Assembly: GCA_965656965.1 (NCBI GenBank)
Contig: CBFHMK010000008.1
Location: 30,970-94,969, forward strand
Direction: 5' to 3'
DNA: 64,000 nt
From: an uncultured Porticoccaceae bacterium
GTDB lineage: Bacteria > Pseudomonadota > Gammaproteobacteria > Pseudomonadales > Porticoccaceae
The position numbers and the translations under genes are program-made. Positions within the stretch are counted from its first letter, which is position 1; every line of letters starts with the position of its first letter. Shown here one piece after another: positions 10,250 to 34,302 of the stretch. Under the pieces are notes generated by a model that worked only from the letters and a program-made list of their open reading frames with translations, did not search any database and had not been told where the DNA came from.

Positions 10250-10258
10250 GTAAATAAT

Positions 10259-13068: not shown

Positions 13069-13080
13069 TCCCCTTGTTGC

Positions 13081-14511: not shown

Positions 14512-14516
14512 GGTAG

Positions 14517-17281: not shown

Positions 17282-17282
17282 A

Positions 17283-17701: not shown

Positions 17702-19621
17702 GTGACAATCATGCTGGTAGTTAAACATGTGGTATGGGTATTTTTTCTGCTGTCTGTGGTGGCCTGTAAGACGAGCCCACCCGCTGACCAAAGTTTTGGA
17801 GCCCAAGCCGCCAGCAGTAGTGAGGTTTCGACGAATGCTGAAGTAAAGAGCGAGATTAGTAGTTCAGCCGAAACCGATTCCTCTCCAGATACTCAAGACA
17901 GCGATTACAATGTTCAACCTGGAGAGTTTAATTTATATCCTCGAGAAACCAGCGGCTGGGATGAAACAGGCTGGTCTATTATTACGCCCTCTGAAGACTC
18001 TCGACTAATCTATGTCAGTTCAAGTGCAGGAGATGATGAAAACGCAGAATTTTATGCGCCCCGAGATATTGCTGATATTGAACACCCAGGGTTGATTAAG
18101 CCCTTCAAAACTATTGAGGCAGCCAATCAAAATGCTCGACAGGGGTACCCTGACTGGATTCTGTTGCGAAGAGGAGATGTCTGGGAAGTCGATGGCCCGG
18201 TTCATTTAAACGGGGGTCGATCTATTGAGGAGCGATCAGTATTCACATCCTATGGGCAAAATATCGAACGCCCAATGATTGTCAAAAGTGGCAGCAAAGA
18301 TATATTGAGAATATGGGCAGAGATTAGATATGTGTCTATTGTGGGGATTTCTTTTTACGGCGCAGAGCGCGATCCCTCATCACAAAGATTTGTTGGCTGG
18401 GGTAATGTTCCAGAATTACGCGGTATTTTTATTTACTCGGGTGATGCCCATGAAGAAAGGATGGGATCTATTTTAATTGAAGATAATCGCTTTAACTTTC
18501 TAAGTAAGGCAATTTCAAGTACTGGTGATGCCGAGCATGTCGATTTAGTCATAAGACGCAATGTCATAAGCAATTCATACAACGAACTGGGGCATGCACA
18601 GGGCATGTCGGCCGCCTATACCTCGGCCTTGTTGGAAGAAAATATATTTGATCACAATGGTTGGTTAACTCAGCAAAAGATCAAGGATGGCAAGGAAAAA
18701 TCAGAAGGCCAGGCGACCATGTTTAATCACAATACCTATTTTACAACCGCAATGGATACCATTTTTAGGAATAATATTTTTCTTAGGCCTTCGAGTATCC
18801 ACAACAAATGGACAGCCAATCCCCCAACTGAGACCGATCAGGTTATGTCCCGTAATCTGATAATGGAGAACAATCTCTATGTTGGTGGAGAAATAGGGAT
18901 TAGTGCTGGCGGTAATGATGATAACGATAATGGTCATCGTTGGGAAAACATTAAGATTATCGACAATGTACTGATGGCCATAGGTAGAGATCAGCCTACA
19001 AAAAGAACGCTGGGGTGGAATATAGATGCAACAGACTGGGATAGCGGTTTGATCTGCGGTAATTATCTATTGCATACCGACAATGCAGCGATAACAAATA
19101 TCTATGGGATTAAGCTTTCCGGCCACAGTAAAAATGTTTCTATCAATGAAAATACCATTCATGGTCTGATTACCCCTAACCCCAGTGATATTAATGGAGC
19201 CATTGCCATAGTTGATGGAGCCGCCAAGACGGACATTGCGGTTTCACTAAATAATATCCAGCTTTCAGATAGCAATATGCGCGTTGTTGTCACCGACCAG
19301 TTAGATTCGGTAGAATTTAATGAAAATAAGTATTTCTCAGGCCTAGAAGAAGCCCAATGGTTCGGTTCAGGAGGCAGTGACTATGATATTTCTGCTTGGC
19401 GTTCTATAGCTACAGATACCAGTTCTGAGGTGATTAAGGATGTATTTCTTGAACCGAAGAGAACATTCGAAACTTACCTGCACTCAATTGGCATGGACTC
19501 AATCGATGTTTTTGTGGACTCAATAATGGCACAGTCGATTGGATCTTGGAATGAAAATTTCTCCGCTAAGAAAATCAATAAATACATTCGTGAGGGCTAC
19601 GGAAATATAACCTGCCAATGA
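17702..19621 (+). CDS. Lipoprotein with right-handed parallel beta-helix repeats (polysaccharide-active candidate)
   Basis: Lipobox VVAC, Ser/Thr/Ala/Asp-rich linker, IYVSSSAGDD..PFKTI motif, repeated IEDNxF/IRRNxI/LEENIF/FRNNIF units. Confidence 0.75.
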   Translation: MTIMLVVKHVVWVFFLLSVVACKTSPPADQSFGAQAASSSEVSTNAEVKSEISSSAETDSSPDTQDSDYNVQPGEFNLYPRETSGWDETGWSIITPSEDSRLIYVSSSAGDDENAEFYAPRDIADIEHPGLIKPFKTIEAANQNARQGYPDWILLRRGDVWEVDGPVHLNGGRSIEERSVFTSYGQNIERPMIVKSGSKDILRIWAEIRYVSIVGISFYGAERDPSSQRFVGWGNVPELRGIFIYSGDAHEERMGSILIEDNRFNFLSKAISSTGDAEHVDLVIRRNVISNSYNELGHAQGMSAAYTSALLEENIFDHNGWLTQQKIKDGKEKSEGQATMFNHNTYFTTAMDTIFRNNIFLRPSSIHNKWTANPPTETDQVMSRNLIMENNLYVGGEIGISAGGNDDNDNGHRWENIKIIDNVLMAIGRDQPTKRTLGWNIDATDWDSGLICGNYLLHTDNAAITNIYGIKLSGHSKNVSINENTIHGLITPNPSDINGAIAIVDGAAKTDIAVSLNNIQLSDSNMRVVVTDQLDSVEFNENKYFSGLEEAQWFGSGGSDYDISAWRSIATDTSSEVIKDVFLEPKRTFETYLHSIGMDSIDVFVDSIMAQSIGSWNENFSAKKINKYIREGYGNITCQ

Positions 19622-19720
19622 GCCTTCATCTATATCTTGCATAGCCTGAAAGTAGACTATTATTAGAGACATACTTTGGCATATTTTTGCCTCAGGTAAA
19701 CGATAATAAGAGCTAACGGA

Positions 19721-20941
19721 ATGGCGTCTAAAAAGCAGACAAGCCCCAAAATATTAATGGTAATGAATGGCCCACCCTGGTCACCCTGGACTATGTCTGG
19801 TGTTAGTAAAGGTGTCTGTACAGCATTGTTAAATCGGGGTGCTCTCTACGGGGCAATATCTCATCGCTGTCCAACCTCCAGAAATCTTGTACCTACGCCT
19901 TGGCGACGATTAGAGTCCTTATTCTTCGGATTGGTAACTAGGTTTTTGGGTCAGTCGTCGCCATCTTGGCAGTCTGAGTCATCTCCTGGATTGGCGGCAA
20001 TATTGACCCGCATTCCAGCTTCTACAGCAGTGGTATATACCTATGTCAATCCAGAGTATCAGGAGACCTATGATTTGCAGAGATATAGGTGGATAGGGAT
20101 CTCTGTGTTAGATGCTGCGGAATATCAGGCTTATGGGCATAGAGGTCTCGATAAATCCGCACTCCGAGAAAAGTATCAAGCACAGTATAAAACCATACAT
20201 CAGTCAGAGGCGATTTTTACTCATTCAAGTTATGGTGCGGATTCTATAGCTCGAGACTACAACTATCCCCGAGAAAAAATATTCCCTATTGGCGCAGGTG
20301 CTTCACTCCAGTTTGGGTCAATAAAACGTAGTCGTCCAGATCGCTTCAGACGCTGCAACATCCTATTTATAGGTCGTGATTGGGAGCGTAAAGGTGGTCC
20401 CTTGGTGTATGCGGCATTCAAGCTGCTTCGGGCAGAAATTCCCCATGCAACTCTCACCATTGTTGGCCCGACAGAGCAGCCAGTGTTTGGCCCGGGAGTA
20501 CTGTTTGCGGGCTTTCTTAGAAAGCATAGGTACCGAGAGAGGCGAAAGCTCAAAAAGCTATATTTAAATGCTTCTATTTTCTGTACTCCCTCAGTATGTG
20601 AAACCTGGGGTCTAGTTTATGTGGAGGCCGCAGCAGCAGGGCTGCCCATTGTGGGTACCTATGAATGGGCTATGCCCGACATTGTGCTCAATGGGAAAAC
20701 AGGAGTGCTCTGTAACGAACGATCTCCAGAAGCAATAGCTAAGGCGATGGCCAGTATCTTGGTGGACCCTATTGGCGCAATGAAAATGGGCCAAGAAGCG
20801 GCTAAGTATGTTAGGGATGTGCTGGATTGGCCTCATGTGGCTGACCGGATAATCGCTGCAATTTCTCCAGAGCTACTCAAGGGTCGAAAGCCTATATGGC
20901 TACCCAGAGATATAGTTAGGTCAAAGAAACGGCCACAATGA
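19721..20941 (+). CDS. Glycosyltransferase family 4
   Basis: ILFIGRDWERKGG, ETWGLVYVEAAAAGLP (EX7E motif). Confidence 0.9.
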   Translation: MASKKQTSPKILMVMNGPPWSPWTMSGVSKGVCTALLNRGALYGAISHRCPTSRNLVPTPWRRLESLFFGLVTRFLGQSSPSWQSESSPGLAAILTRIPASTAVVYTYVNPEYQETYDLQRYRWIGISVLDAAEYQAYGHRGLDKSALREKYQAQYKTIHQSEAIFTHSSYGADSIARDYNYPREKIFPIGAGASLQFGSIKRSRPDRFRRCNILFIGRDWERKGGPLVYAAFKLLRAEIPHATLTIVGPTEQPVFGPGVLFAGFLRKHRYRERRKLKKLYLNASIFCTPSVCETWGLVYVEAAAAGLPIVGTYEWAMPDIVLNGKTGVLCNERSPEAIAKAMASILVDPIGAMKMGQEAAKYVRDVLDWPHVADRIIAAISPELLKGRKPIWLPRDIVRSKKRPQ

Positions 20942-21900
20942 TGACCGATTTATCTATTATTATTGTCAACTACAGAACGCCTAAGTTATGTATTGATTGC
21001 CTCTCGTCTTTAATTGAGATTAACGACCTAACGCTTAAAATCATCATTGTAGATAATGCGTCTAATGACGACTCTATAGAGAAAATTCAACAGGCTATTC
21101 ATGATAATCAATGGGCTACAGTCAGATTGATAGGCTCACCAAATAATGACGGGTTTTCTGCTGGAAATAATCTTGGCATTCAAGCCTGTCAATCTGACTA
21201 TGTCCTACTGCTAAACAGTGACACTATTGTTCGCCCTGGAGCCATTAAGATATTACTGAAAACTCTAGAAGACAGCACAGATATGGGCATGGCAAGTCCC
21301 CGACTGGAATGGCCTGACGGCAGCCCTCAAGAGAGCTGTTTTCGCTTTCACCGGCCTATCAATGAATTGATTCGCTCTGCTTGCTCTGGTCCCATTACCA
21401 GGCTGCTTAAAGCTTATGAGGTGCCTCTGAGAGTGACCGACGAGCTATCCTATCCGGAGTGGACTAGCTTTGCCTGTGTTTTGGTTCGCCGCGAGTTATT
21501 TGAGAAAATTGGTCTTCTCGATGAAGAGTTCTTTATGTACTTTGAAGATGTCGATTTCTGTCACCGTGCCCGCGCTGCCGGCTGGCCTATTATTAATAAT
21601 CCGCAGGCCCATGTTGTGCATCTGCGTGGTGGCAGCTCACCGGTCAAGAGTCAGGCGGCCAAAAAGAAGCGCTTGCCGCGTTATTTTTATGAGTCTCGTA
21701 CCAGGTATTACTACAAGTACTTTGGTCGCACTGGTTTATTGATGGCCAATTTATTCTGGCATCTGGGCGCCATAATCGGCAGGGCGCGACAGCTTTTTAG
21801 CGCCAGCTACCCGCCCAATATCTGCGAATCTCAGTGGCGGGATATCTGGACTAATTTCACCCGCCCCAATGCGCCCTATATCCACCCGGACGACTATTAA
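20938..21900 (+). CDS. Glycosyltransferase family 2
   Basis: IIIVNY, IVDNASND, NxGFSAGNN, LLNSDT, FMYFEDVDFC. Confidence 0.92.
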   Translation: MMTDLSIIIVNYRTPKLCIDCLSSLIEINDLTLKIIIVDNASNDDSIEKIQQAIHDNQWATVRLIGSPNNDGFSAGNNLGIQACQSDYVLLLNSDTIVRPGAIKILLKTLEDSTDMGMASPRLEWPDGSPQESCFRFHRPINELIRSACSGPITRLLKAYEVPLRVTDELSYPEWTSFACVLVRRELFEKIGLLDEEFFMYFEDVDFCHRARAAGWPIINNPQAHVVHLRGGSSPVKSQAAKKKRLPRYFYESRTRYYYKYFGRTGLLMANLFWHLGAIIGRARQLFSASYPPNICESQWRDIWTNFTRPNAPYIHPDDY

Positions 21901-21902
21901 CT

Positions 21903-22778
21903 ATGACGCCAAGACTGCCTAGTTTCTTTATTATCGGCGCCATGAAAAGTGCGACCAGCACATTGCATAATCAACTGGCGGCTCAGTCAGGAATTTTTAT
22001 GTCTACCCCCAAGGAGCCTAACTTCTTTAGTGATGACGACCGATATTCCTTGGGTGTGGATTGGTATCAGGGCCTGTTTGCTGCAGCACAAAAGACCGAT
22101 ATCTGCGGAGAGTCCAGCACCCACTACAGCAAACTCCCCGATCACCCCAATACCATCAAGCGCCTAAAGCCATTAATTAATAATCCCAGATTCATCTATG
22201 TGATGCGCCATCCGATAGATCGCCTAGTATCGCACTACATGCATCAGTGGTCTGAGGGAGTTATTTCATGTGATATCAATCAGGCGATTGATACCTATCC
22301 TGAACTGGTTGATTACAGCCGTTACGGGATGCAGATCAGGCCCTATTTAAAGACCTTTGGCGGGGGAGCGGTGCTACCTGTTTTCTTTGAACAACTAAGA
22401 GCGCAGCCGGAACTGACCCTTGGCCAGGTAGGAGACTTTATTGGCTGCTCGAAACCATTGCATTGGTTCCCGGATCTAGCGGCTGACAATGTATCCAACC
22501 AGCGTATTCGAAAATTTCCGGGTTATCAGTGGCTGATTGAATCTCCCGCCATGTCTAGCTTGCGTAGGGCGCTGATACCAAGACAGCTGCGGGATCGAAT
22601 CAAAGATAGTTTGCGCATGCAGCAGCGCCCATCGATCAACTGTTTCCAGCTTAGAAAGCTACAGCAAATTTTTGATAAGGATTTACAGGCGATAACAGAT
22701 TGGCTGGGTTATGAGGTTAGCTGTGATCGCTTTTCTAAGCCCCTCGAATTCAGTGCGGAAAGTGAGCCTTTGATATGA
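21903..22778 (+). CDS. PAPS-dependent sulfotransferase
   Basis: 5'-PSB loop IIGAMKSATSTL, KEPNFF, GESSTHY, 3'-PB RHPIDRLVSHY. Confidence 0.9.
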   Translation: MTPRLPSFFIIGAMKSATSTLHNQLAAQSGIFMSTPKEPNFFSDDDRYSLGVDWYQGLFAAAQKTDICGESSTHYSKLPDHPNTIKRLKPLINNPRFIYVMRHPIDRLVSHYMHQWSEGVISCDINQAIDTYPELVDYSRYGMQIRPYLKTFGGGAVLPVFFEQLRAQPELTLGQVGDFIGCSKPLHWFPDLAADNVSNQRIRKFPGYQWLIESPAMSSLRRALIPRQLRDRIKDSLRMQQRPSINCFQLRKLQQIFDKDLQAITDWLGYEVSCDRFSKPLEFSAESEPLI

Positions 22779-22963
22779 GAAATAGGCTATCTTTTAGGAG
22801 TAAGGCTCAAAATGTGAACCAGTTGGCTTTTTGAGATAAAAGAGGGTCTCATTTTGGTTTTAATATTTCATTATCAATGCCCCACAAGTAAAGTTAATCC
22901 AGAATGAATTTTTTTATCGGTGCAGGCCCAGTTGCTCGAGCCAATAATATATGTAGAGAATAT

Positions 22964-23911
22964 ATGGACGATTCTTACCTGATTATTTCACCCTGCCGCA
23001 ATGAAGCGGAATTTATGTTCAGTACGCTTGATTCTGTTGTTAGTCAGTCAGTGAGGCCTGCCAAATGGATTATTGTTGACGATGGCTCGACAGATGCAAC
23101 CGGCGATATCCTTCGTGAGTACGCCAGTCAGTACGACTTTATTGAAGTTGTTACCAAGCCTGATCGCGGCCATCGTGCCGTGGGTCCCGGTGTTATAGAG
23201 GCTTTTAATCTTGGTTTAGAGTCAACCAATCTTGATGATTATGAGTTTCTCTGCAAGCTAGATTTGGATGTTGATTTACCCCATAGATACTTTGAGATAC
23301 TAATACAGAAAATGCATAAAACGCCGCGTATAGGTACCTGCAGCGGCAAGCCCTACAGCAGGCAGGGTAAATGGTTGCTGAGTGAAAAGCGGGGTGATGA
23401 GATGTCTGTAGGTATGACCAAGTTCTACCGTGTCAGCTGTTATAAACAGATTGGCGGCTTTGTACCCGAGGTTATGTGGGACGCAATAGACTGTCATCGC
23501 TGCCGACAACTGGGTTGGATAGCCTGTAGTTGGGATATCCCTGAGTTACGGTTTGTGCATTTGAGAGCTATGGGTTCCAGCCAAGATAATATCTACGTGG
23601 GCAAGCAGCGCCATGGTTATGGACAGTACTTTATGGGTACAGGGCTTATTTACATGCTGGTTACCTCAGTTTACCGCATGCTTCATCCACCCTATATTTT
23701 AGGCGGCGGCGCCATGTTTCTGGGTTATCTACGCAGTATGGTCACTCGCGTCCCCCGATACTCAGATCAGACACTAAGACGCTTTATTCGGAGCTACCAT
23801 TGGAAATGTCTAATTCTGGGGAAAAAGTACGCAACCAAACTGGTTGATGACAGGCAGGCGTCAATATGGCAGCGCTATCAATCGCGAAAAACTTCGGTAG
23901 TAGCAGGGTAA
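22964..23911 (+). CDS. Glycosyltransferase family 2
   Basis: IISPCRNE, IVDDGSTDAT, KLDLD, GWD-like MWDAID. Start placed at ATG 22964; 22904 is also possible. Confidence 0.88.
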   Translation: MDDSYLIISPCRNEAEFMFSTLDSVVSQSVRPAKWIIVDDGSTDATGDILREYASQYDFIEVVTKPDRGHRAVGPGVIEAFNLGLESTNLDDYEFLCKLDLDVDLPHRYFEILIQKMHKTPRIGTCSGKPYSRQGKWLLSEKRGDEMSVGMTKFYRVSCYKQIGGFVPEVMWDAIDCHRCRQLGWIACSWDIPELRFVHLRAMGSSQDNIYVGKQRHGYGQYFMGTGLIYMLVTSVYRMLHPPYILGGGAMFLGYLRSMVTRVPRYSDQTLRRFIRSYHWKCLILGKKYATKLVDDRQASIWQRYQSRKTSVVAG

Positions 23912-23947: not shown

Positions 23948-24547
23948 ATGGATTTTGCAGAATTTGTAGAAGATTACTATCAGCGATATATTCAGGTTAT
24001 TAAAGACTTCGATAAGGCCACTCTCGAGCCTGTATTAGAGATTTTTTTAGCGACCGCTCGCAATAATGGCACACTCTGGGTCGCTGGCAATGGCGGAAGC
24101 GCCGCTATAGGAGATCACACGGTCTGCGACGTTACCAAAGGCACGCATAAACCCGGTCAGCCGAGTATTAAGTCCATTTCATTGTCATCCAATACCGCCA
24201 TGCTGACTGCACTGGGCAATGATATCTCCTATGAAGCGGTGTTTAGCGAGCAGCTAAAATATTATCTGGGCAAGAATGATGCTCTGCTGTTGGTTAGCTC
24301 TAGTGGAAATTCGCCCAATGTAGTTGCTGCCTGCGACTACGCCAATCAGATGGGCGTACCTACCATCGCCTTTGTGGGCTTCAAAGGGGGGAAATTAAAA
24401 GAGATGGCCAAGTATTCTGTATGGATACCGGTGGAAAACTACGGCATGACCGAGGACGCGCACCAGAGTCTAATGCATGTGACCACTCAATATATTATGG
24501 CGCATGCCAAGACCAGAGTAGGCACCGAGGCTGAGGCGCTTAATTAA
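23948..24547 (+). CDS. gmhA: Sedoheptulose-7-phosphate isomerase (SIS domain, GmhA-like)
   Basis: GNGGSAA, TALGNDISYEAVFSEQL, SSSGNSPNV, EDAH motifs. Confidence 0.88.
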   Translation: MDFAEFVEDYYQRYIQVIKDFDKATLEPVLEIFLATARNNGTLWVAGNGGSAAIGDHTVCDVTKGTHKPGQPSIKSISLSSNTAMLTALGNDISYEAVFSEQLKYYLGKNDALLLVSSSGNSPNVVAACDYANQMGVPTIAFVGFKGGKLKEMAKYSVWIPVENYGMTEDAHQSLMHVTTQYIMAHAKTRVGTEAEALN

Positions 24548-25602
24548 TGTCTCTGTCGCAACAGGTAGGTGCTGTGGTTATAGGTCGCAATGAGGGCGAG
24601 CGATTGAAGCGCTGTTTGTCCTCGCTGCAGACGCAGCATCAGGGGCCTATAGTGTATGTGGATTCTGGTTCCACCGATAGCAGTGTGGAATATGCTCAAT
24701 CCGTTGGTATTGATCTGGTTAATCTGGAGATGAGCAGGCCTTTTACCATGGCTCGGGCCAGAAATGCGGGGCTTTGGTACCTCCAAGAAAAATATCCCAA
24801 GACTGCATTTGTACAGTTTATTGATGGAGACTGCGAACTCAACGACCACTGGCTCTCTTCTGCCTATAATTTTTTACTTGCACATCAGAACATAGTTTGT
24901 GTCTGTGGCCATCGACGTGAACGTTTTCCTAACATCAGTCTTTATAACAATCTTATTGATATGGAATGGCAGCGCGAAGTAGGCGAAATTGACGCCTGTG
25001 GCGGCGATGCTATGTATCGCATAGATGCGCTGCAAAAAGTGAAAGCCTTTAACGAGATTATGATTGCTGGTGAAGAGGGCGAGCTCTGTTGGCGACTGCG
25101 TCTTAATGGCGGAGGCATAGTAAGACTAGACCAGCCCATGACCTTACATGACGCCAACATGCATTGCCTCTCACAATGGTGGATGCGATCGGTGAGATGT
25201 GGCCACGCCTACGCGCAGGGCTATGACTTACAGAGACGGAGTTCGAGGTATCAAAAACCAGCTTATAAACAGCATCAGATGTTAAGTAGTCTGTTTTATG
25301 GTGCAGTAGTGCCGGCTCTGCTGTTGGTATTTGCGGCAATATTGATAAGTCTTAGCCTACCCAGCATCTGGATTCTTTTTGTGGGTTGGGCCATGGTTTT
25401 TTTAGTCTTTTTCTATGCCCCTATTATTCATAAGTCAGCGGCCTCCAGACTGCCCCAGAAATATAGTGTAAAAAACCGTTATCTCTATGCATGTTTTGTT
25501 GCTCTGGGGAAATTCCCCGAGGCTCAGGGCGTTTTGAGATATTACAAAAACAAATTATTTGGCAAGACTGCCAGAATTATTGAATACAGACGAAATTTGT
25601 AG
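24547..25602 (+). CDS. Glycosyltransferase family 2
   Basis: VVIGRNEGERLKRCL, YVDSGSTD, ARARNAG, FIDGDC, GEEGELC. Confidence 0.9.
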   Translation: MSLSQQVGAVVIGRNEGERLKRCLSSLQTQHQGPIVYVDSGSTDSSVEYAQSVGIDLVNLEMSRPFTMARARNAGLWYLQEKYPKTAFVQFIDGDCELNDHWLSSAYNFLLAHQNIVCVCGHRRERFPNISLYNNLIDMEWQREVGEIDACGGDAMYRIDALQKVKAFNEIMIAGEEGELCWRLRLNGGGIVRLDQPMTLHDANMHCLSQWWMRSVRCGHAYAQGYDLQRRSSRYQKPAYKQHQMLSSLFYGAVVPALLLVFAAILISLSLPSIWILFVGWAMVFLVFFYAPIIHKSAASRLPQKYSVKNRYLYACFVALGKFPEAQGVLRYYKNKLFGKTARIIEYRRNL

Positions 25603-25625: not shown

Positions 25626-26846
25626 ATGATTCATTATATAACCAGCAATGGTGTCGGTAATGCTTGGGTTGGCAACGAGTTAATGGCACTGTCAAAACAG
25701 AGTCTGGACTTTGCATTACATTCATTGCATCGACCTGCGACTAGCTATTTTAAATCTCAGACGGTAGCAGAGATCAATCAGCAGACCCACTTTATATATC
25801 CGTTACCGCTATCTCAGGTAATTTCTGAGGTCTGCAAAGCGCCATTTTGTTTTGGGCGACGTTTTTGGTTTGCATTGCTTAATGCTGTGTTTGGTCGCAA
25901 AGAATCTTTTACGGTGAGGCTTAAGTCTGTGTTGCACTTCTCAGTGGCCTGCGTATGGGCAAGATATCTAGCGACACAAAGGGTTTCCCACATCCATTCT
26001 CAGTGGATCAACTCCTGTGGCACTGTCGGCATGTATGCGGCCTGGCTGCTCGATAAACCCTTTAGTTTTACCGGCCATGCGGCAGATCTATTTCGCGAGC
26101 GCTGCGCTCTAAAAGATAAAATCATCAGAGCAAAATTTATTGTCTGTATCTCCAGTTTTCATAGAGACTTCTATATAGAGCAAGGGGCAGATCCAGCCCA
26201 ACTCATTGTTGCCTATTGCGGCATAGACACTAGCCTTTTTAAACCCAAAAAACCAACGCATAACGCGGGGCCTGTGCATATTGTTTCAGCCGCTCGGCTG
26301 GTAGAAAAAAAGGGTTTGATGTATTTAATTGATGCCTGTGAACAATTAAAAACTGTTCTGGACTTTCGCTGCACCATTGCCGGCGATGGGCCGTTGTTGT
26401 CCGAGTTGCAGCAGCGAATAGACGGCAGAGGTTTATCTGATCTAGTGACACTTACCGGCGAGCCCCTGCTGCAGGAGGATATCCCAGATTTTATGGCAGC
26501 CGGTGATATTTACTGTCTGCCCTGTGTCTGGGCAGAAGATGGCGATGTGGATGGTCTGCCTCAGATGCTAATGGAAGCAATGGCCTGTGCTGTACCCGTT
26601 ATTTCAACCCAGTTAGTAGGCATCCCGGATTTAGTTGAGGATGGCCAGACTGGATTATTGGTAGCACCCAAGGACTCTGCAGGCCTGGCCGAAGCAATAT
26701 CTAAGCTGGCCCAGGATAGCCATTTGCGTCAGCATCTGGCGGCCCAGGGTAGACAAAGAGTGATCGATACGTTTTCTATTGATAAGTCGCTGCAACCTTT
26801 AATTTATCAGTTTAAGCAACAGATTGATCAAGGATTGGCGCAATGA
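25626..26846 (+). CDS. Glycosyltransferase family 4 (WcaL-like)
   Basis: HIHSQW, FTGHAAD, AARLVEKKG, DGLPQMLMEAMA. Confidence 0.9.
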   Translation: MIHYITSNGVGNAWVGNELMALSKQSLDFALHSLHRPATSYFKSQTVAEINQQTHFIYPLPLSQVISEVCKAPFCFGRRFWFALLNAVFGRKESFTVRLKSVLHFSVACVWARYLATQRVSHIHSQWINSCGTVGMYAAWLLDKPFSFTGHAADLFRERCALKDKIIRAKFIVCISSFHRDFYIEQGADPAQLIVAYCGIDTSLFKPKKPTHNAGPVHIVSAARLVEKKGLMYLIDACEQLKTVLDFRCTIAGDGPLLSELQQRIDGRGLSDLVTLTGEPLLQEDIPDFMAAGDIYCLPCVWAEDGDVDGLPQMLMEAMACAVPVISTQLVGIPDLVEDGQTGLLVAPKDSAGLAEAISKLAQDSHLRQHLAAQGRQRVIDTFSIDKSLQPLIYQFKQQIDQGLAQ

Positions 26847-27832
26847 TTATTTCGCAAACACCCTACAGAGTGAGCTTTGCTGGTGGCGGAACTGACCTAC
26901 CTTCATTTTATGAAAAAGAGATGGGTGCAGTCTTATCTGTCGGCTTAAATCAGCACATGTATGTGACGGTAAGTCCGCGCTTTGAGGCCTCCACCCGTAT
27001 TGCTTACACCAAGACTGAGATTGCCGATTCTATTGATGAGATTCAGCACACCATTGCAAGGGAAGTGCTGCGCATGACTGGGTTGGGAAAACATTTGGAA
27101 ATTACCACCATTGGCGATGTGCCCTCGGGCACAGGTCTGGGGTCCAGTAGCAGCCTCGCTGTAGGTCTTCTCAATGCGCTGTATGCCTTCAAAGGCCGGC
27201 TTACCAGCGCCCAGCAACTTGCAGAGCAGGCCTGTCAGGTTGAGATTGATCTATTGCATAAACCCATTGGCAAGCAGGATCAATATGCCGCTGCCTATGG
27301 TTCTCTTAACTATATTGCCTTTAATCCAGATGGCACAGTCAATGTAGAGCCTGTGCCCTATAAGCCCGATACCTTGAGGGAATTGGAGTCGCGAACCCTA
27401 TTGCTGTACACGGCACAACAGCGCAGTGCCGATGATATTTTAGTCAAGCAAAGTGCCGGCACCAGAGAGGCTGATAAGTTTAGTATTCTTAGACAGATGC
27501 GGGATCTGGCCATTGAGATGAAAGGGATTATTTCTAATCAGGGCAGCATTGATGAGTTTGCTAGGCTACTTCATGAAGGCTGGTTACTTAAAAAATCTCT
27601 GGGTTTTGGGATTTCAAATAGTGCCATAGATGATTGGTATGAAGCCGCAATAAAAGCAGGTGCTCAGGGGGGTAAATTGTTGGGTGCTGGCGGCGGCGGG
27701 TTTTTGCTGTTAGTCGCACCGCCAGAAAAGCATCAGGCAATCCGCGACGCACTGGGTAATCCCCGCGAAATTCCTTTTGAGATAGATCGTCGAGGCAGCA
27801 GAATTATCTTTATCAGTGATCGATATAAATAG
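26843..27832 (+). CDS. hddA: GHMP kinase, D-glycero-alpha-D-manno-heptose-7-phosphate kinase-like
   Basis: TPYRVSFAGGGTD, PSGTGLGSSS, IGKQDQY, GGKLLGAGGGG; gmhA and an NTP-transferase are in the same block. Confidence 0.85.
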   Translation: MIISQTPYRVSFAGGGTDLPSFYEKEMGAVLSVGLNQHMYVTVSPRFEASTRIAYTKTEIADSIDEIQHTIAREVLRMTGLGKHLEITTIGDVPSGTGLGSSSSLAVGLLNALYAFKGRLTSAQQLAEQACQVEIDLLHKPIGKQDQYAAAYGSLNYIAFNPDGTVNVEPVPYKPDTLRELESRTLLLYTAQQRSADDILVKQSAGTREADKFSILRQMRDLAIEMKGIISNQGSIDEFARLLHEGWLLKKSLGFGISNSAIDDWYEAAIKAGAQGGKLLGAGGGGFLLLVAPPEKHQAIRDALGNPREIPFEIDRRGSRIIFISDRYK

Positions 27833-27884
27833 CTTTTAGAACACTAAAAGTTAAGGACAGAGGAAAAATGACAAGGAGTGTTTG

Positions 27885-28871
27885 GTGAAAATTTTACTAA
27901 CGGGCGGTGCAGGCTATGTGGGTAGTGCCTGTTTAAGACATTTATTAGAGTGCGGCCATAGGCCTGTTGCCTATGATAATTTAGTAGAGGGTCATTCTGC
28001 AGCGGTCAATGGAGCGCCCCTAGTAGTAGGTGATATCCGCAATACAGACTTACTGAAAAAAACTCTTCGCGATTATCAAATTGAGGCAGTAATGCACTTT
28101 GCGGCAGCCACTAATGTAGGGGAATCGGTAATAAACCCCGCTTACCACTACGACAATAATATTGCTGGCACCCTGTCACTTCTCAATGCCATGGTAGCGG
28201 CAGATGTTAAAAAAATACTCTTTTCAAGCACCTGTGCTACCTATGGTTTAAACCCCAAAAGCCCCATGGCAGAGGATGCTGATCAGGCCCCCTGCAGCCC
28301 CTATGCTCGCACTAAGTTGGCAGTGGAGTGGATGATCAAAGACTTTGCCCACGTGCATAAAATGGGTTACAGCCTGCTGCGGTACTTCAATGCGGCCGGA
28401 GCATCCGAGGATGGCCAGTTTGGTGAATATCACCATCCCGAAACTCATCTTATTCCTCTGGTTTTGGACAATATCTTACAGGGCAGCAGCGAACTCAGGG
28501 TGTTTGGCACTGACTACCCGACAGTAGATGGCACCTGCATACGTGACTATGTGCATATCAACGATCTCGCCAGCGCCCATCTCTTGGCTATGCAGGCAAC
28601 CACTGAGTCTACCGCTGAGGTGTTTAACATAGGCACCGGAAACGGTCAGTCGGTGCTAGATATTATTCGAGCCTGCGAAAAGGTATCTGGGCACAGGGTT
28701 GATTACCAGGTGGTCGAACGGCGCCCGGGAGACGCACCTGAATTGGTGGCTAAAGCGGATAAATTAAAGTCGCAGCTCGGTTGGCAACCTCAATATACCG
28801 ATATTGTAGACACAGTGCGTACCGCCTGGACCTGGCATAAATTAAAACCTCAGGGCTATGGTCCGCGATAG
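27885..28871 (+). CDS. galE: UDP-glucose 4-epimerase
   Basis: TGGAGYVGS, HFAA, FSSTCATYG, YxxxK, LRYFNAAGA, THLIP, DGTCIRDYVH. GTG start 6 nt after AGGAG. Confidence 0.92.
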   Translation: MKILLTGGAGYVGSACLRHLLECGHRPVAYDNLVEGHSAAVNGAPLVVGDIRNTDLLKKTLRDYQIEAVMHFAAATNVGESVINPAYHYDNNIAGTLSLLNAMVAADVKKILFSSTCATYGLNPKSPMAEDADQAPCSPYARTKLAVEWMIKDFAHVHKMGYSLLRYFNAAGASEDGQFGEYHHPETHLIPLVLDNILQGSSELRVFGTDYPTVDGTCIRDYVHINDLASAHLLAMQATTESTAEVFNIGTGNGQSVLDIIRACEKVSGHRVDYQVVERRPGDAPELVAKADKLKSQLGWQPQYTDIVDTVRTAWTWHKLKPQGYGPR

Positions 28872-28899
28872 TGAACAGACAGCAGACAAGGAAGTATTA

Positions 28900-30027
28900 A
28901 TGAAAATTTTGGTCACCGGGGGCGCTGGCTTTATTGGCTCTCATACAGTGGATCGCCTGGTTACAGAGGGTCATCAGGTGCGCATTTTGGACTGCCTAAA
29001 AAAACCTGTACACCTAAGAGGGCTGCCGGATTGGATAAACCCCGAGGCAGAATTTTTGCTGGGAGATGTGCGCAACAAAGTTGATCTAGAAAAGGCTATG
29101 CGGGGTGTTGATGCTATTTATCATTTGGCTGCCTATCAAGATTATCTGCCAGACTTTTCTGCCTTTATTCACACCAATGGGGTTAGTACCGCACTGATTT
29201 ATGAAATTATTGTTGAGCAAAAACTCCCCATCCAAAAAGTTGTCGTTGCCAGCAGTCAATTTGTGCAGGGCGAGGGCCGTTATATTTGTTCTCAATGCGC
29301 CGCGGATGTTTCGCCTCTTATGCGTGACGAAAGCCATTTATTAAAGGGTCAATGGCAACATCAATGCGCTGACTGTGGTGGACAGTTAGACTGGTGTTGG
29401 ACCAGTGAAGAACATATTGCTCCACCCAACGCCTACGCACTATCCAAGCACTCTCAGGAGCAGCAAGCAATCACATTTGGTCGGCGCTATGGCATACCCT
29501 CTGTAGCATTGCGATACTCGATAGTTCAGGGTGCCCGACAGTCCTTTTTTAATGCCTACAGCGGCGCCTGCAGGATTTTTTGTTTAAATTATTATTTTGC
29601 CAAGGCACCAACGCTCTACGAAGACGGCAATCAATGTCGAGATTTTGTCAATATCCATGATGTGGTTGAGGCCAATCTGTTGGCGCTTCACAGTACCCAG
29701 ATGGATGGCCAGGTATTTAACGTCGGTGGGGGAACCGCGTACAGTCTTGCCGATTTTGCTGAAATCGTTCGCAGTGCGGTGCAGCCTCATCATACTGATT
29801 TGCTTCCCACTCCAAGTATCCCCGGAGCTTACAGATTCGGTGATACTCGCAATGCCTGTTCCAATATAGATAAGCTCAGAGCCATAGGATGGCAGCCTAA
29901 GTTCTCGCCAGAAAATTCTGTGGCGGAGTATGTTGACTGGCTCTACGCACAGGAGAATGTTGAAGATATTCTTAATTATGCTGAACAAACCATGAAGAAA
30001 TTAAATGTGGTTAGGCAGAGCGCCTAA
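28900..30027 (+). CDS. Extended SDR NAD-dependent epimerase/dehydratase with CxxC...CxxC insert (WbiB-like)
   Basis: TGGAGFIGS, VASS, YALSK, RDFVNIHD; insert GEGRYICSQC...HQCADC. Start at ATG 28900. Confidence 0.8.
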   Translation: MKILVTGGAGFIGSHTVDRLVTEGHQVRILDCLKKPVHLRGLPDWINPEAEFLLGDVRNKVDLEKAMRGVDAIYHLAAYQDYLPDFSAFIHTNGVSTALIYEIIVEQKLPIQKVVVASSQFVQGEGRYICSQCAADVSPLMRDESHLLKGQWQHQCADCGGQLDWCWTSEEHIAPPNAYALSKHSQEQQAITFGRRYGIPSVALRYSIVQGARQSFFNAYSGACRIFCLNYYFAKAPTLYEDGNQCRDFVNIHDVVEANLLALHSTQMDGQVFNVGGGTAYSLADFAEIVRSAVQPHHTDLLPTPSIPGAYRFGDTRNACSNIDKLRAIGWQPKFSPENSVAEYVDWLYAQENVEDILNYAEQTMKKLNVVRQSA

Positions 30028-30056: not shown

Positions 30057-30638
30057 ATGAACTGGTACTTTATGCGCCATGGACAGATTAATTCAAATCT
30101 TAACCATGTTTATTCAGGCCGTAGCGATGAACCCCTAAATAACTGTGGGGTAGAGCAGGCCCATGAGGCTGCCGAGTTAGTTAGTAAAGCGCCTATCGAT
30201 CGCATTATCTGTAGTCCATTAGTTAGAGCTACTCAGACATCCAATATTATTTCTATAGCTAATGACATTGGTTATGAGACGGATGATGCGTTTATAGAAA
30301 TGAAGTTTGGCCCCTGGGAAGGCAGGTCGGAATCCTGGGTCAAACAGCACTACCCCATTGAATGGGCGCTATGGAACAGAGCACCTCATCAACTCCAGCT
30401 TCCAAGGCGTGAGACATTGCTGGAACTGCAGAATAGGGTTATTAGTCGCATGCATAAGATTGCTATCGCTAAACCTGTGGAGAATATTTTAGTGGTTTCT
30501 CATGTAGCGGTTATTCGAGTGGTATTACTGCATTCCCAGAGGCGGCCTTTGTCAGACTATAAGCTAGTTGAGGTGGATAACTGCGCCCTATTTCAGGTCA
30601 ACTTGCAGGCTGCGCCGCACTGGGAGTCCTGTCTATGA
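30057..30638 (+). CDS. Histidine phosphatase (phosphoglycerate mutase superfamily)
   Basis: RHG catalytic motif, SPLVRA, EMKFGPWEG, VVSH; ATGA overlap with the next gene. Confidence 0.9.
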   Translation: MNWYFMRHGQINSNLNHVYSGRSDEPLNNCGVEQAHEAAELVSKAPIDRIICSPLVRATQTSNIISIANDIGYETDDAFIEMKFGPWEGRSESWVKQHYPIEWALWNRAPHQLQLPRRETLLELQNRVISRMHKIAIAKPVENILVVSHVAVIRVVLLHSQRRPLSDYKLVEVDNCALFQVNLQAAPHWESCL

Positions 30639-31345
30639 AGGCGATACTTCTTGTCGCTGGTTTGGGGTCAAGGCTGCGTCCTATGACTCATAAAATACCA
30701 AAGTGTTTGCTGCCAATTAATAGCCAGCCACTGCTGGGTATCTGGTTTAAAAAATTAGCCAGTGCTGGTGTTACTGAGGTATTGGTAAATACCCATTGGC
30801 TCGCCGATCAGGTAGAGGACTATGTTGCGCAAAACACACCCTCTGGGCTAACAGTTAGGCTGTTTGATGAGCCTGAACTTTTAGGCAGTGCTGGGACCCT
30901 GCTGGCCAACCAAGATTATCTGGGTAAACAGACTTTTTTTGTTATCTATGGCGACAATCTGTCTGATGTGAATTTGTCAGATATGTACCAGTCACATTTG
31001 CGCCATCGGCCAATACTCACTCTGGGGACTTTCAGTGCAGACAGTCCTCAGACATGTGGTATTGCCGAAATTGATGACCAAGGCTGGGTGCAGAGTTTTA
31101 TTGAAAAGCCCAGTAACCCAGTTTCTAACTGCGCCGCTGCGGGAATCTATGTGGTGGAGCCGGAGGTCTTTGATTACTTTCCTCAGCCAGATATCAATGG
31201 GCAACTGGATCTTGGCTTTGATGTCATCCCCAAATTAGTCGGCAATATGCATCATTACCCGATTAATTTATTGATAGATATTGGTACGCCTGACAGTTAT
31301 CGCCGAGCTCAGGATGCTCAGATCGATGCCCTGTTGGATATTTAA
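30635..31345 (+). CDS. hddC: Sugar-1-phosphate nucleotidyltransferase, heptose-1-phosphate guanylyltransferase-like
   Basis: LLVAGLGSRLRP..PK, ELLGSAG, YGDN, EKP, DIGTP. The hddC assignment rests on context with gmhA/hddA. Confidence 0.7.
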   Translation: MKAILLVAGLGSRLRPMTHKIPKCLLPINSQPLLGIWFKKLASAGVTEVLVNTHWLADQVEDYVAQNTPSGLTVRLFDEPELLGSAGTLLANQDYLGKQTFFVIYGDNLSDVNLSDMYQSHLRHRPILTLGTFSADSPQTCGIAEIDDQGWVQSFIEKPSNPVSNCAAAGIYVVEPEVFDYFPQPDINGQLDLGFDVIPKLVGNMHHYPINLLIDIGTPDSYRRAQDAQIDALLDI

Positions 31346-31365: not shown

Positions 31366-32472
31366 GTGACTGGATTAACCCTAGCTGAACGCAACCTCTG
31401 GACCGTTTTGGGGTTGCCATTTGACCGAGTAAACAGGGAGGAGGCTGTTGCTCTGATTGAGCAATGTATTCGGACAGGGAGTCGCTGTTTTCTATCGACG
31501 CCAAACTTAAATTTTGTTGTACAGGCATACAGGGACAAGGCGTTCTATCGTTCGGTGCTCGAGAGCGATCTGGTGGTAGCAGATGGTATGCCGATTATAT
31601 GGGTGGCAAGGTTGCTAGGCATTCCTTTGCCAGAGCGAGTAGCCGGTTCATGTCTTTTTGAAAGCCTAGAACAGCAGAAGCCTGATAGGCCGATCCGAGT
31701 GTTCTTTTTTGGTGGTCAGGGTGATGCCGCAGAAAAGGCCGCTGCCAATCTTGCAGAGACCAGCCAGAGCATGGAGTGCTGCGGGTTTTTAAACCCCGGC
31801 CTGGGGACTGTAGATTCCATGAGTACTGATAAGATTATCCAGCAGATTAATAGGGCTCGGGCAGATTTTTTATTAGTGGCTCTTGGCGCCAAAAAAGGTC
31901 AGCACTGGATTCAGCATAATCGCTCTAGACTTGAAGCACCTGTAATCAGCCATCTAGGAGCAGTGATAAATTTTGTGGCTGGTGATGTTGAGCGTGCCCC
32001 TAAGTTATGGCAAAGATTGGGTGTTGAGTGGCTTTGGCGTGTTAAGCAAGAGCCTGGCCTGATGCGACGGTATATTTCAGATGGTCTGTGGTTTATCTAT
32101 TTATTAGTAGCTCGGGTATTTCCGTTGGCAATATATGACTCCATATTACAGCTGACAGCAGGTCCCCGACGGCCCCTCAAAATCAGCAGCAATCAGATTG
32201 ACCACTGTCTTGAACTGGCACTGGTTGGGTCGGCGACGGCGACAAATTGTCGACAGCTTAAGCTGGTCTGTGAAAAAGCGCTGAGTCAGCCATGTACTAT
32301 ACTCAGGCATGTGCAAATTGATTGCTCTGAGTTGGTTTATATCGATAGCGCGGCGGTGGCGGTACTTTTGATATTTGAAGCAACTCTGACACAAAGAGGG
32401 CAGAGCCTGACATTTCTACATATTAATGGACGTATTAAAAGGTTAATTGGGTTGCAGGCGTTGCATCGTTAG
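31366..32472 (+). CDS. WecB/TagA/CpsF family glycosyltransferase fused to a C-terminal STAS domain
   Basis: TPNLNF, ADGMPI, ERVAGS, VALGAKK, RAP..WQRLGVEWLWR; C-terminal IDCSELVYIDSAAVAVLL STAS motif. Confidence 0.85.
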   Translation: MTGLTLAERNLWTVLGLPFDRVNREEAVALIEQCIRTGSRCFLSTPNLNFVVQAYRDKAFYRSVLESDLVVADGMPIIWVARLLGIPLPERVAGSCLFESLEQQKPDRPIRVFFFGGQGDAAEKAAANLAETSQSMECCGFLNPGLGTVDSMSTDKIIQQINRARADFLLVALGAKKGQHWIQHNRSRLEAPVISHLGAVINFVAGDVERAPKLWQRLGVEWLWRVKQEPGLMRRYISDGLWFIYLLVARVFPLAIYDSILQLTAGPRRPLKISSNQIDHCLELALVGSATATNCRQLKLVCEKALSQPCTILRHVQIDCSELVYIDSAAVAVLLIFEATLTQRGQSLTFLHINGRIKRLIGLQALHR

Positions 32473-32670: not shown

Positions 32671-34302
32671 ATGGAGTTGAATCAGGAAATGGATTTTAAG
32701 GATAGTACTGCAGCTGTGCCGTCGCCGGAAAAATTTTATGCATTAGCTGAGTTGTTAGCTAAACCTGGATTTTGGGTAGGCATCGGCGCGATTTTGGTTG
32801 GTCTATGGCTTTATTGGGATGGTTTAGCTGAGGCGGTTCTGCGCTGGGAAAGGCAGGCAGAATACAGTCACGGCTACCTAATTCCTCTGGTGTCTCTATT
32901 TATCCTCTGGGAGAAGCGCTTTGAGATTATTGCCGGTTATCGTCGTCCTTCCTGGTGGGGCTTGCCAGTCATTATTCTGGCCCTGATTGTTCTGGTTGTT
33001 GGCGAGATCAGCGCGTTGTTTGTGCTGATTCATTATTCCTTTATTTTGTTTCTGTTTGGTCTATCTCTGGCATGGCTGGGCAGTGCAGCCAGGCATACCT
33101 GGGTACCTATTCTACTGCTGGGCTTTGCTGTGCCTTTGCCCTATTTTATTGAGGTGATTCTCACCGCAAAGTTGCAGTTGGTTTCTTCTCAGTTGGGTGT
33201 TGACATTATCCGCCTGTGTGGGATTCCGGTATTTCTCAGCGGCAACATTATTGATCTGGGTGATTACCAATTACAGGTGGTAGAGGCCTGTAGTGGCTTG
33301 CGCTATTTATTTCCCCTCATGAGTCTTGGTTTTATTGCCGCCTATCTGTATCAGGCTGCTTGGTGGAAACGGGTCTTACTATTTATTTCAACTGTACCTA
33401 TCACCATCTTTATGAATAGTTTTCGCATCGCGGTGACTGGGCTCTTGGTAGACAACTGGGGCACCCAGATGGCCGAGGGATTTCTGCATGATTTTGAAGG
33501 CTGGTTAATCTTTATGGCCTGTGGCTGTTTGATGCTATTAGAAATTATGTTGATGGAGCGCTTCACCAGCAGGCAGAAAATCCATCAGGCATTTGCGGTG
33601 CCTGTGCAAATTGGAGCAGCAGGTCTGCACAACAAAAAGCCGACTGAGCTAATTATCTCCCGACCACTGCTGATAGCTATTCCATTATTACTCATAGCGG
33701 TTATATTTTTGTATTCTGTGAAGGCACGACAGGAACCTGCGCTGGCGACCAATGGCGCATTAATTGATTATCCAATCCGACTGGGGGACTGGAATGGCGT
33801 GCATGACAGTATCGATACTCTGGTCGCTGAGAAGCTCGGCTTTACTGACTATGTGATGCTTAACTATACCAATCTCGAGCACCAGCCAATCAATTTCTAT
33901 GTTGCTTACTATGCTTCTCAGCGCAAAGGGCTCTCACCCCATTCACCCAAGGTCTGTATTCCGGGTGGCGGCTGGGAAATAGCAGATTTTCGCCGTACTC
34001 AGGTGGACGATATACCGGTTAATCGGGCATTGATTCGCAAAGGTAATCAAGACCAAATTGTTTACTACTGGTTTGAAGAGCGCGGAGTTGCTGTGGCCAA
34101 CGAGTATTTAAAAAAATGGATGTTGTTTAAAGATGCACTATTTCTCAATCGAACTGATGGCTCTCTGGTGAGAGTCACCACGCCTGTATTAAGCCATGAG
34201 TCAATGGAGGACGCAGATCAAAGAGCTCGTGGATTTATTCGTATTTCACACAATCAATTATCGCAACTTTTACCAAGTCATAACTTGGAGGGAACAAAAT
34301 GA
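32671..34302 (+). CDS. xrtD: Exosortase (EpsH domain) fused to an EpsI domain, VPLPA-CTERM-specific XrtD-like
   Basis: EYSHGYLIP, catalytic Cys in VVEACSGLRY, Arg in NSFRI, His in LHDFEGW, EpsI motif HSPKVCIPGGGWEI. Subfamily inferred from the VPLPA target in the block. Confidence 0.85.
   Translation: MELNQEMDFKDSTAAVPSPEKFYALAELLAKPGFWVGIGAILVGLWLYWDGLAEAVLRWERQAEYSHGYLIPLVSLFILWEKRFEIIAGYRRPSWWGLPVIILALIVLVVGEISALFVLIHYSFILFLFGLSLAWLGSAARHTWVPILLLGFAVPLPYFIEVILTAKLQLVSSQLGVDIIRLCGIPVFLSGNIIDLGDYQLQVVEACSGLRYLFPLMSLGFIAAYLYQAAWWKRVLLFISTVPITIFMNSFRIAVTGLLVDNWGTQMAEGFLHDFEGWLIFMACGCLMLLEIMLMERFTSRQKIHQAFAVPVQIGAAGLHNKKPTELIISRPLLIAIPLLLIAVIFLYSVKARQEPALATNGALIDYPIRLGDWNGVHDSIDTLVAEKLGFTDYVMLNYTNLEHQPINFYVAYYASQRKGLSPHSPKVCIPGGGWEIADFRRTQVDDIPVNRALIRKGNQDQIVYYWFEERGVAVANEYLKKWMLFKDALFLNRTDGSLVRVTTPVLSHESMEDADQRARGFIRISHNQLSQLLPSHNLEGTK

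Follow-up and report, generated by a model that had tools for sequence, protein, structure and literature searches.

A histidine phosphatase predicted to stand in for GmhB in an exosortase-linked NDP-heptose cassette

We investigated a 64-kb stretch of DNA (contig CBFHMK010000008.1; this whole stretch is called the window below) from a marine SAR92-clade bacterium of the Porticoccaceae, and within it a plus-strand gene (30057-30638) that encodes a histidine phosphatase of 193 amino acids. Our comparative data suggest that this protein is probably the sugar-bisphosphate phosphatase of a nucleoside diphosphate (NDP)-heptose pathway feeding an exosortase-linked exopolysaccharide (EPS), in which it would be a non-homologous isofunctional replacement of GmhB. 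An original prediction, made from the sequence of the window, had proposed that the protein is a heptose-1,7-bisphosphate 7-phosphatase structurally unrelated to GmhB, and this proposal now finds support in comparative genomics, namely in the linkage of the phosphatase to pathway genes, in its swap with GmhB in situ and in the mutual exclusion of the two enzymes.

The GmhA-HddA-GmhB-HddC pathway is present in Aneurinibacillus thermoaerophilus, Campylobacter, Yersinia and the Burkholderia capsule. As reportedly described by Kneidinger et al. 2001 and in later work, it leads to GDP-D-glycero-alpha-D-manno-heptose. The heptose pathway is thus known, and it is the histidine-phosphatase variant of its phosphatase step that appears to be new: NCBIfam holds no model for this phosphatase clade, and a search of the full-text literature, with subscription journals outside its coverage, found no paper that ties a histidine phosphatase to the GmhB step.

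Results

The phosphatase gene lies in a predicted heptose cassette, in a window that has no gmhB

The phosphatase gene is part of one long plus-strand operon that runs from a SIS isomerase gene through an XrtD exosortase gene and then to a gene for a TPR protein. Its predicted pathway partners are the GmhA-like SIS isomerase (23948-24547; SIS_2, 3e-16), a GT4 glycosyltransferase (25626-26846; Glycos_transf_1, 3.1e-34), an HddA-like GHMP kinase (26843-27832; GHMP_kinases_N and _C), the UDP-glucose 4-epimerase GalE (27882-28871; TIGR01179, 399 bits against a cut-off of 262), an extended SDR of the NDP-sugar epimerase/dehydratase kind that carries an insertion of about 35 amino acids (28858-30027; Pfam Epimerase in two stretches) and a sugar-1-phosphate nucleotidyltransferase of 236 amino acids (NTP in gene orders below; 30635-31345; NTP_transferase, 1e-34). 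The stop of the GT4 gene overlaps the start of the kinase gene at 26843-26846. Reading of the open reading frames (ORFs) and their Pfam assignment bear out the earlier description of an RHG-motif histidine phosphatase that is coupled to an hddC-like gene, since the phosphatase and nucleotidyltransferase genes share an ATGA stop/start overlap at 30635-30638.

The absence of a HAD-family gmhB from this block, which had also been claimed, held in the entire 64 kb of the window: tblastn with Escherichia coli GmhB gave a best E value of 0.26, a scan for HAD motif I found nothing, and Pfam assigned no HAD domain to any window ORF of at least 150 amino acids.

The histidine phosphatase and GmhB alternate in situ and exclude each other

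Closely similar cassettes in other bacteria carry a GmhB-type HAD gene. In a Myxococcales locus (L092), the gene order is GT4-GHMP-SDR-NTP-HAD-GalE-exosortase and the HAD start overlaps the NTP stop, while in a second locus (L093) the order is SDR-NTP-HAD-GalE, with the SIS and GT4-GHMP genes nearby. The proteins of these two loci are 72-75% (GHMP kinase, with L092 at 75%), 66-67% (GalE), 53-55% (GT4), 50-52% (SDR) and 43% (NTP) identical to those of the window. Their HADs share 38-39% identity with GmhB of E. coli (E ~3e-30), and among the NCBIfam models GmhB fits them best. The same cassette is found in Piscinibacter sp. HJYY11 (L177), in which a HAD that shares 45% identity with the E. coli enzyme (E = 9e-47) comes right after GalE and no histidine phosphatase is present. 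HAD-type cassettes, with the HAD beside the nucleotidyltransferase, were seen in Myxococcales, in Piscinibacter and on many metagenome contigs, and overall their kinases are 68-75%, their GalE proteins 64-67%, their GT4 proteins 51-55% and their nucleotidyltransferases 43-44% identical to the window proteins; the GT4-GHMP pair is common to both types of locus. The type of locus can change even between close relatives, as in Sulfuritalea with the histidine phosphatase and Piscinibacter with GmhB, whose SDRs are 84% identical.

A set of 83 loci was selected by their kinase, comprising the three loci examined first and 80 from a metagenome scan with a kinase alignment. A GmhB-type HAD was present in 37 of these loci and a histidine phosphatase in three, all of the SAR92 type; none had both, and many of the remaining contigs were short. 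In the reverse direction, no GmhB-type HAD was found in any of the 41 loci of the phosphatase clade. Orthologous cassettes thus hold either a GmhB-type HAD or the histidine phosphatase and never both; mutual exclusion was the check that the original prediction had proposed, and among about 120 loci there was no homologous locus that carried the two genes together.

The Sulfuritalea-type loci were extended because the original ones ended before the slot of interest. In both of them (L175, from Sulfuritalea, and L176), the NTP gene ends and the GalE gene begins in a shared ATGA, and the HAD slot is therefore empty; tblastn found no GmhB-like sequence in either locus. The histidine phosphatase of L175 is encoded 9 kb upstream in the same locus, and that of L176 in L007, an overlapping locus of the same contig. 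One HAD of L176 (12913-14379), directly after GalE, was considered as a GmhB and rejected: it is a 488-amino-acid membrane fusion of an N-terminal SerB-like HAD (DLDGT) with a UbiA prenyltransferase domain and has no similarity to GmhB. On a neighbour-joining tree of the kinases, the HisPhos-type (histidine phosphatase) and HAD-type loci interleave at no fewer than four places, which indicates repeated replacement or transfer.

Pathway genes accompany the phosphatase clade in distant phyla

A profile scan with the phosphatase alignment, limited to one genome per GTDB species, yielded 80 loci, whose ORFs were searched with the window proteins and E. coli GmhB. Fifteen Porticoccaceae loci keep the gene order of the window. 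More widely, the SIS, GHMP, NTP and insert-bearing SDR genes accompany the phosphatase clade in six phyla or more, and in many cases the five genes make up a compact cassette; homologues at 35-45% identity have the same partners in Nitrospirota, Thermodesulfovibrio, Deferribacteres, Desulfobulbales, Desulfobacterium, Gemmatimonadales and Sulfuritalea. The five-gene block SDR-NTP-GHMP-SIS-HisPhos occurs in Thermodesulfovibrio (L035) and Deferribacteres (L036), and it follows GalE in a Nitrospirae locus (L027: GalE-SDR-NTP-GHMP-SIS-HisPhos). Shorter or rearranged versions are NTP-GHMP-SIS-HisPhos (L038 and L045), GHMP-SDR-HisPhos-NTP-SIS (L026, Desulfobulbales), HisPhos-NTP-SIS (L028, Desulfobacterium), GHMP-HisPhos-NTP (L034) and HisPhos-NTP-GHMP..SIS (L044, Gemmatimonadales).

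In a neighbour-joining tree the pathway-linked phosphatases form one clade, and the other His_Phos proteins (L047-L090) have no partner at all. At least one pathway partner was present in the fetched locus for 16 of the 18 clade members from outside SAR92, compared to none of the 43 other His_Phos loci (Fisher p = 7.5e-13). The nucleotidyltransferase gene directly adjoins the phosphatase gene in 20 of the 41 clade loci, and the same 4-base overlap of the two genes recurs in L001, L020-L025 and L034. Two metagenome-assembled genomes (OX044363.1 and CALSQH01) contain split or truncated genes, namely the phosphatase of L046 (10001-10614) and the nucleotidyltransferase of L019 (10612-11317); these splits are probably frameshift errors of assembly and not pseudogenes.

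One locus appears to hold two heptose routes side by side

The only apparent case of both enzymes in one place was L034. On its plus strand (7766-11253) the genes GT4-GHMP-HisPhos-NTP stand back to back with a divergent minus-strand operon (11262-18642) encoding a transaldolase, a PfkB kinase, two cytidylyltransferase-like proteins, a SIS isomerase, a GT9 heptosyltransferase, a 125-amino-acid HAD-IIIA-like protein, a class II aldolase and an RpiB-cytidylyltransferase fusion. Transaldolase makes sedoheptulose-7-phosphate. From its gene content, the divergent operon appears to encode an HldE-type (beta) heptose route that has its own HAD, beside the GHMP-type (alpha) route. We assigned the 125-amino-acid HAD, which the HAD motif scan had flagged, to this separate HldE-like operon, which accounts for the apparent exception, and L034 was not counted as an example with both enzymes. 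Since the histidine phosphatase coexists here with the HAD of a separate route, its role is probably confined to the alpha (GHMP-kinase) route. This gene context also supports heptose chemistry for the cassette.

The protein is a histidine phosphatase of the branch 1 fold

The phosphatase ORF begins with MNWYFMRHGQ and is preceded, about 10 bases upstream, by an AAAGGA ribosome-binding site. Residues 4-184 match His_Phos_1 (PF00300; 1.4e-45) with 155.8 bits against a gathering threshold of 21.7, placing the protein in branch 1 of the superfamily. The catalytic residues R7, H8, R57, E81 and H149, of which the first two form the RHG motif with G9, show no substitution in alignments A1, A2 and A4 or among 34 members of the clade taken from the fetched loci. 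A pattern scan was run on alignment A2, because A1, with its two distant homologues, was too diverse. Compared to the other His_Phos proteins of the fetched loci, the residues S13, Y19, S23, E25, S91, E92, R118, V150, Y168 and K169 are specific to the clade, and the two basic ones among them are candidates for binding the second phosphate.

The AlphaFold2 model of the protein (predicted local distance difference test score 94.3, predicted template modelling score 0.90) has the alpha/beta fold of phosphoglycerate-mutase-like proteins. Foldseek matched it with a probability of 1.00 to PspA, PhoE and CobC, with template modelling (TM) scores of 0.82-0.89. The best superposition was on PspA 4ij6 (TM 0.89, root-mean-square deviation (rmsd) 1.6, 25% identity), and further structural matches were PhoE, CobC, a histidine phosphatase of the riboflavin pathway, GpgP Rv2419c and the fructose-2,6-bisphosphatase domain. 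Mutases superposed less well, with an rmsd of about 5 compared to 1.6-1.8 for phosphatases.

The partner enzymes are divergent relatives of heptose enzymes

The original prediction counted three of the four GDP-heptose steps as present in the window. An isomerase, a kinase and a nucleotidyltransferase were indeed found, yet all three are better described as divergent relatives, because they score well short of the equivalog cut-offs curated by NCBI. The best NCBIfam model of the SIS isomerase is gmhA (TIGR00441; 92.8 bits against a cut-off of 209), and every one of its top matches in the PDB is a phosphoheptose isomerase GmhA (7.6e-24). It retains the positions of the GmhA active-site His/Glu/His residues, with two conservative changes (Asp in place of Glu, and Glu in place of Gln), and it shares 62% identity with its SIS counterpart in the HAD-type cassette L093. 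The GHMP kinase scored highest among NCBIfam models with HddA (NF049969; 155 bits, cut-off 600), and its best PDB matches are the heptose kinases 3k85, 4usk (WcbL) and 4n3o (8.5e-43 to 7.6e-35).

The nucleotidyltransferase matched the NCBIfam models for mannose-1-phosphate guanylyltransferase (GMPP) with 118 bits and HddC with 76 bits (cut-off 300), both below their cut-offs. Among PDB entries, UDP-glucose pyrophosphorylase (UGPase) and GMPP outscored the HddC structure 6jq8, and RmlA-type enzymes did as well as HddC or better. Since the protein is no closer to HddC than to these guanylyltransferases and UGPases, an HddC-like role is predicted for it and "GDP-heptose" is a reasonable label for its product, but not an established one.

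Across phyla the GHMP kinase is 68-78% identical, and among Gammaproteobacteria, Myxococcota, Planctomycetota and Desulfobacterota it is 70-78% identical, far above its partners (NTP 43%, SDR 50%), which points to strong constraint or to a recent lateral spread together with the GT4 gene, to judge from these identities. The SDR matched only generic SDRs in the PDB and is a cassette member in many phyla at 48-67% identity; its relatives carry the JGI label "dTDP-L-rhamnose 4-epimerase". Its insertion of about 35 residues follows an SSQ..GEG motif and reads CSQC...C-ADCGG in the window, resembling a zinc ribbon, with a CxxC...CxxC pattern in this lineage. All orthologues of alignment A5 have the insertion, with varying cysteines: they are present in the window, L026 and L033, partly present in L027 and L035, and absent from L092, L093 and L031.

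Discussion

A model for the pathway

We propose that the SIS isomerase would convert sedoheptulose-7-phosphate to D-glycero-D-manno-heptose-7-phosphate, and that the HddA-like GHMP kinase, as an anomeric kinase, would phosphorylate C1 to give the alpha-1,7-bisphosphate. The histidine phosphatase would then take off the 7-phosphate through a phospho-His8 intermediate, the phosphate being bound by Arg7, Arg57 and His149, with Glu81 as the acid and no requirement for a metal. The coupled nucleotidyltransferase would activate the resulting 1-phosphate to an NDP-heptose, probably GDP-heptose, the insert-bearing SDR would modify this product, and the kinase-adjacent GT4, which always lies directly 5' of the kinase gene and is a candidate heptosyltransferase, would transfer the sugar. 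The data show the gene content, the intact catalytic residues, a phosphatase-like fold, the linkage to pathway genes in many phyla, and the alternation and mutual exclusion with GmhB; from these the model infers which substrate, regiochemistry, anomer and nucleotide are involved and in what order the steps occur.

Relation to known enzymes

GmhB (HAD-IIIA; TIGR00213, NF006506, NF050049) shares its reaction with the one predicted here and occupies the equivalent operon position, beside the nucleotidyltransferase, but it has the HAD fold, a different one, and no sequence similarity to the window protein. We found no similarity of the histidine phosphatase to the GmhB-type HAD of L092, and no HAD model, be it TIGR00213, NF006506 or TIGR01656, was among its NCBIfam matches; membership of GmhB was thus discarded, and the relation, as read from the sequences, is one of functional analogy only and not of homology. 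Histidine phosphatases employ a His nucleophile and no metal, whereas HAD enzymes employ an Asp nucleophile and Mg2+. With the GmhA-HddA-GmhB-HddC pathway as a whole, the window shares the four-step logic and the families of the isomerase, the GHMP kinase and the nucleotidyltransferase; it differs in that the phosphatase family is swapped, the other three enzymes are divergent, and the cassette has a fixed insert-bearing SDR and GalE in an exosortase EPS setting.

The closest structure belongs to PspA/iPSP of Hydrogenobacter thermophilus (PDB 4ij5/4ij6), a metal-independent phosphatase that acts on phosphoserine. It offers a precedent for displacement, as iPSP uses the histidine-phosphatase fold to do the job usually done by the HAD enzyme SerB. 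Its substrate and genomic context are different from those of the window protein, which reaches only 86.8 bits with the NCBIfam PspA model (cut-off 350). GpgP Rv2419c (PDB 4pz9/4qih) and the riboflavin-pathway phosphatase (9mmh) have the same fold (TM 0.83-0.85) and are also small histidine phosphatases recruited to dedicated biosynthetic dephosphorylation; they are about 20-24% identical to our protein and differ in their substrates and gene neighbourhoods. Ais/PmrG of E. coli and Salmonella belongs to the histidine phosphatase superfamily too and is annotated as a phosphatase of lipopolysaccharide (LPS) core heptose(II)-phosphate, but its sequence has no detectable similarity: BLASTP against E. 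coli Ais aligned 28 residues at E = 0.014, and an Ais identity was rejected. The substrate of Ais is assembled LPS and not a nucleotide-sugar precursor.

Weighing the evidence

Several observations weigh against a role of the histidine phosphatase in heptose synthesis or narrow its scope. The evidence is wholly comparative and the role of the enzyme is a predicted one. With the GmhA, HddA and HddC models, the scores of the SIS, GHMP and NTP proteins fall far short of the equivalog cut-offs, and the cassette might work on some other, related phosphate of a ketose or aldose. An LPS-type gmhB elsewhere in SAR92 genomes could supply the step, as the GmhB search covered the 64-kb window. The Sulfuritalea-type loci give weaker positional evidence, with the phosphatase gene 5-9 kb off the kinase gene and beside an RmlD-like SDR and sulfotransferases, and a fusion search among 1.84 billion representatives never found the phosphatase joined to SIS, GHMP or NTP. 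A sister group (L039-L042 and L065; ~35% identity; Thermodesulfobacteriota and Eubacteriales) has no linked pathway partner and, by its gene neighbourhoods, would mark the boundary of the predicted function. The closest curated family is CobC, the trees were built by neighbour joining with no bootstrap, short contigs are numerous, and the lineages are not independent of one another.

The cassette may build a different sugar by the same logic of isomerisation, anomeric phosphorylation by the GHMP kinase, loss of the distal phosphate and nucleotidyl transfer, for example through a hexose or octose 1,n-bisphosphate, in which case the histidine phosphatase would still be a bisphosphate phosphatase; the sub-cut-off isomerase, kinase and nucleotidyltransferase, the greater proximity of the last to GMPP and UGPase than to HddC, and the Asp in place of the catalytic Glu of GmhA would all fit such a sugar. 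We regard this as unlikely, as the isomerase, the kinase and the alternative HAD all have heptose enzymes (GmhA, HddA/WcbL and GmhB) as their best matches, and the genes in L034 adjoin a transaldolase and a GT9 heptosyltransferase. A change of step instead of sugar, in which the phosphatase acts on NDP-heptose-7-phosphate or on a phosphorylated sugar already on the lipid carrier or the polymer, is less probable still. The sequence cannot settle the order of the steps, and the Sulfuritalea-type gene stands apart from the kinase and NTP genes, among glycosyltransferases and sulfotransferases; however, the protein alternates with GmhB, an enzyme established to act on the free 1,7-bisphosphate, its gene is coupled to or adjoins the NTP gene in close to half of the clade loci, and it is a soluble protein of the cytoplasmic type, whose N-terminus (MNWYFMRHG) shows no evident signal peptide.

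We also give little weight to the view that the protein acts on an unrelated substrate, be it CobC-like, phosphoserine, of the general PhoE type or linked to the sulfotransferases, and that a GmhB elsewhere in the genome performs the heptose step. Such a view could draw on the names that homologues carry in their sources (PhoE, alpha-ribazole phosphatase or phosphoglycerate mutase), on the sulfotransferases in several loci and on the nearest curated sequence family being CobC (TIGR03162; PDB 6e4b and 6nru at 1.6e-14). The CobC score of 134.1 bits, however, misses the cut-off of 162.9, cob genes are absent from the 64-kb window and from the related loci, and the clade-specific residues S13, Y19, S23, E92, R118, V150, Y168 and K169 differ from CobC; a CobC identity was therefore rejected. 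The compact five-gene cassettes of other phyla have no sulfotransferase in the block, and the complementarity to the GmhB-type HAD is strict, with the HAD slot empty exactly where the phosphatase is present. Finally, the superfamily includes cofactor-dependent phosphoglycerate mutases (dPGM) with bisphosphate intermediates, and the cassette makes such a bisphosphate, which might then be the mere cofactor of a phosphomutase that interconverts heptose-7-phosphate and heptose-1-phosphate. We consider this highly improbable: with 193 amino acids the protein lacks the C-terminal tail of the mutases, it fits phosphatase structures far better than mutase structures, all dPGM models are far below their cut-offs (the best with 69 bits against 225), and it alternates with GmhB, a pure phosphatase. 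A dPGM-type identity was rejected on these grounds.

Implications

Beyond the single protein, we lean, with moderate confidence, towards a broader interpretation, in which the clade would be an unrecognised family of metal-independent heptose-1,7-bisphosphate phosphatases with a His nucleophile, which has displaced GmhB several times in an NDP-heptose cassette (isomerase, GT4, GHMP kinase, insert-bearing SDR, nucleotidyltransferase and GalE) of exosortase-EPS loci across phyla. The family would probably be specific to the alpha route, and the end product of the cassette would be an undescribed modified heptose nucleotide. If this is true, heptose-nucleotide synthesis would have a second, structurally unrelated family for 7-dephosphorylation (EC 3.1.3.82/83), and the annotation of proteins labelled PhoE, alpha-ribazole phosphatase or phosphoglycerate mutase would be corrected accordingly. 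It would also account for some gaps in heptose synthesis, as reconstruction tools score pathways that have no gmhB as incomplete, and it would define a conserved heptose cassette in the exosortase EPS loci of the abundant marine SAR92 bacteria, floc-forming Burkholderiales, sulfate reducers and Nitrospirota. E. coli gmhB mutants keep some heptose in their LPS, for which the histidine phosphatases would be a candidate enzyme type. The protein would furthermore join iPSP and GpgP, which are precedents, among the histidine phosphatases that stand in for HAD phosphatases.

Further features of the locus and of the family

The wider surroundings of the cassette identify its setting. Upstream (5351-23911) lie genes for a priming sugar transferase, Wza- and Wzz-like export proteins, a flippase, further glycosyltransferases and a sulfotransferase; because of these priming, export, flippase and glycosyltransferase genes, together with XrtD, we take the setting to be an exosortase-linked EPS locus. 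XrtD itself, an exosortase with an EpsI domain (32671-34302, plus strand), matches TIGR04152 with 538 bits against a cut-off of 400. The region 5351-36695 forms a single XrtD EPS locus, which also encodes an AAA ATPase and at least six glycosyltransferases. The sulfotransferase gene is at 21903-22778, a GMC oxidoreductase gene lies antisense at 15842-17281, and the ORFs at 4633-5238, 10259-11059, 13081-14511 and 17702-19621 have no Pfam match.

Two further plus-strand genes of the operon encode glycosyltransferases. A GT2 gene (24547-25602; Glycos_transf_2, 1.8e-13) lies between the isomerase and GT4 genes and is kept in SAR92 loci. Downstream of the nucleotidyltransferase gene, in the same EPS operon, a WecG/TagA-family glycosyltransferase with a C-terminal STAS domain is encoded at 31366-32472 (Glyco_tran_WecG, 1.8e-49; STAS_2, 6.6e-11). 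This gene is syntenic in SAR92 loci and is also present in L007/L176; its STAS part resembles anti-sigma-antagonists and may be a regulatory domain on the WecG-type enzyme.

The names of close homologues place the organism in the SAR92 clade of the Porticoccaceae. The stretch itself was detected in marine plankton metagenome DNA runs; all of the sequencing runs that hold it are of marine metagenome DNA, and no RNA run is among them. In the profile search with the phosphatase, the long matches were tandem His_Phos proteins or fusions of a class-I tRNA synthetase with His_Phos, unrelated to heptose. Many tandem double-His_Phos proteins of about 410 amino acids were among the top matches, and P0208 (1161 amino acids) and P0252 (1007 amino acids) each combine the catalytic domain of a class-I aminoacyl-tRNA synthetase with three or four His_Phos_1 domains.

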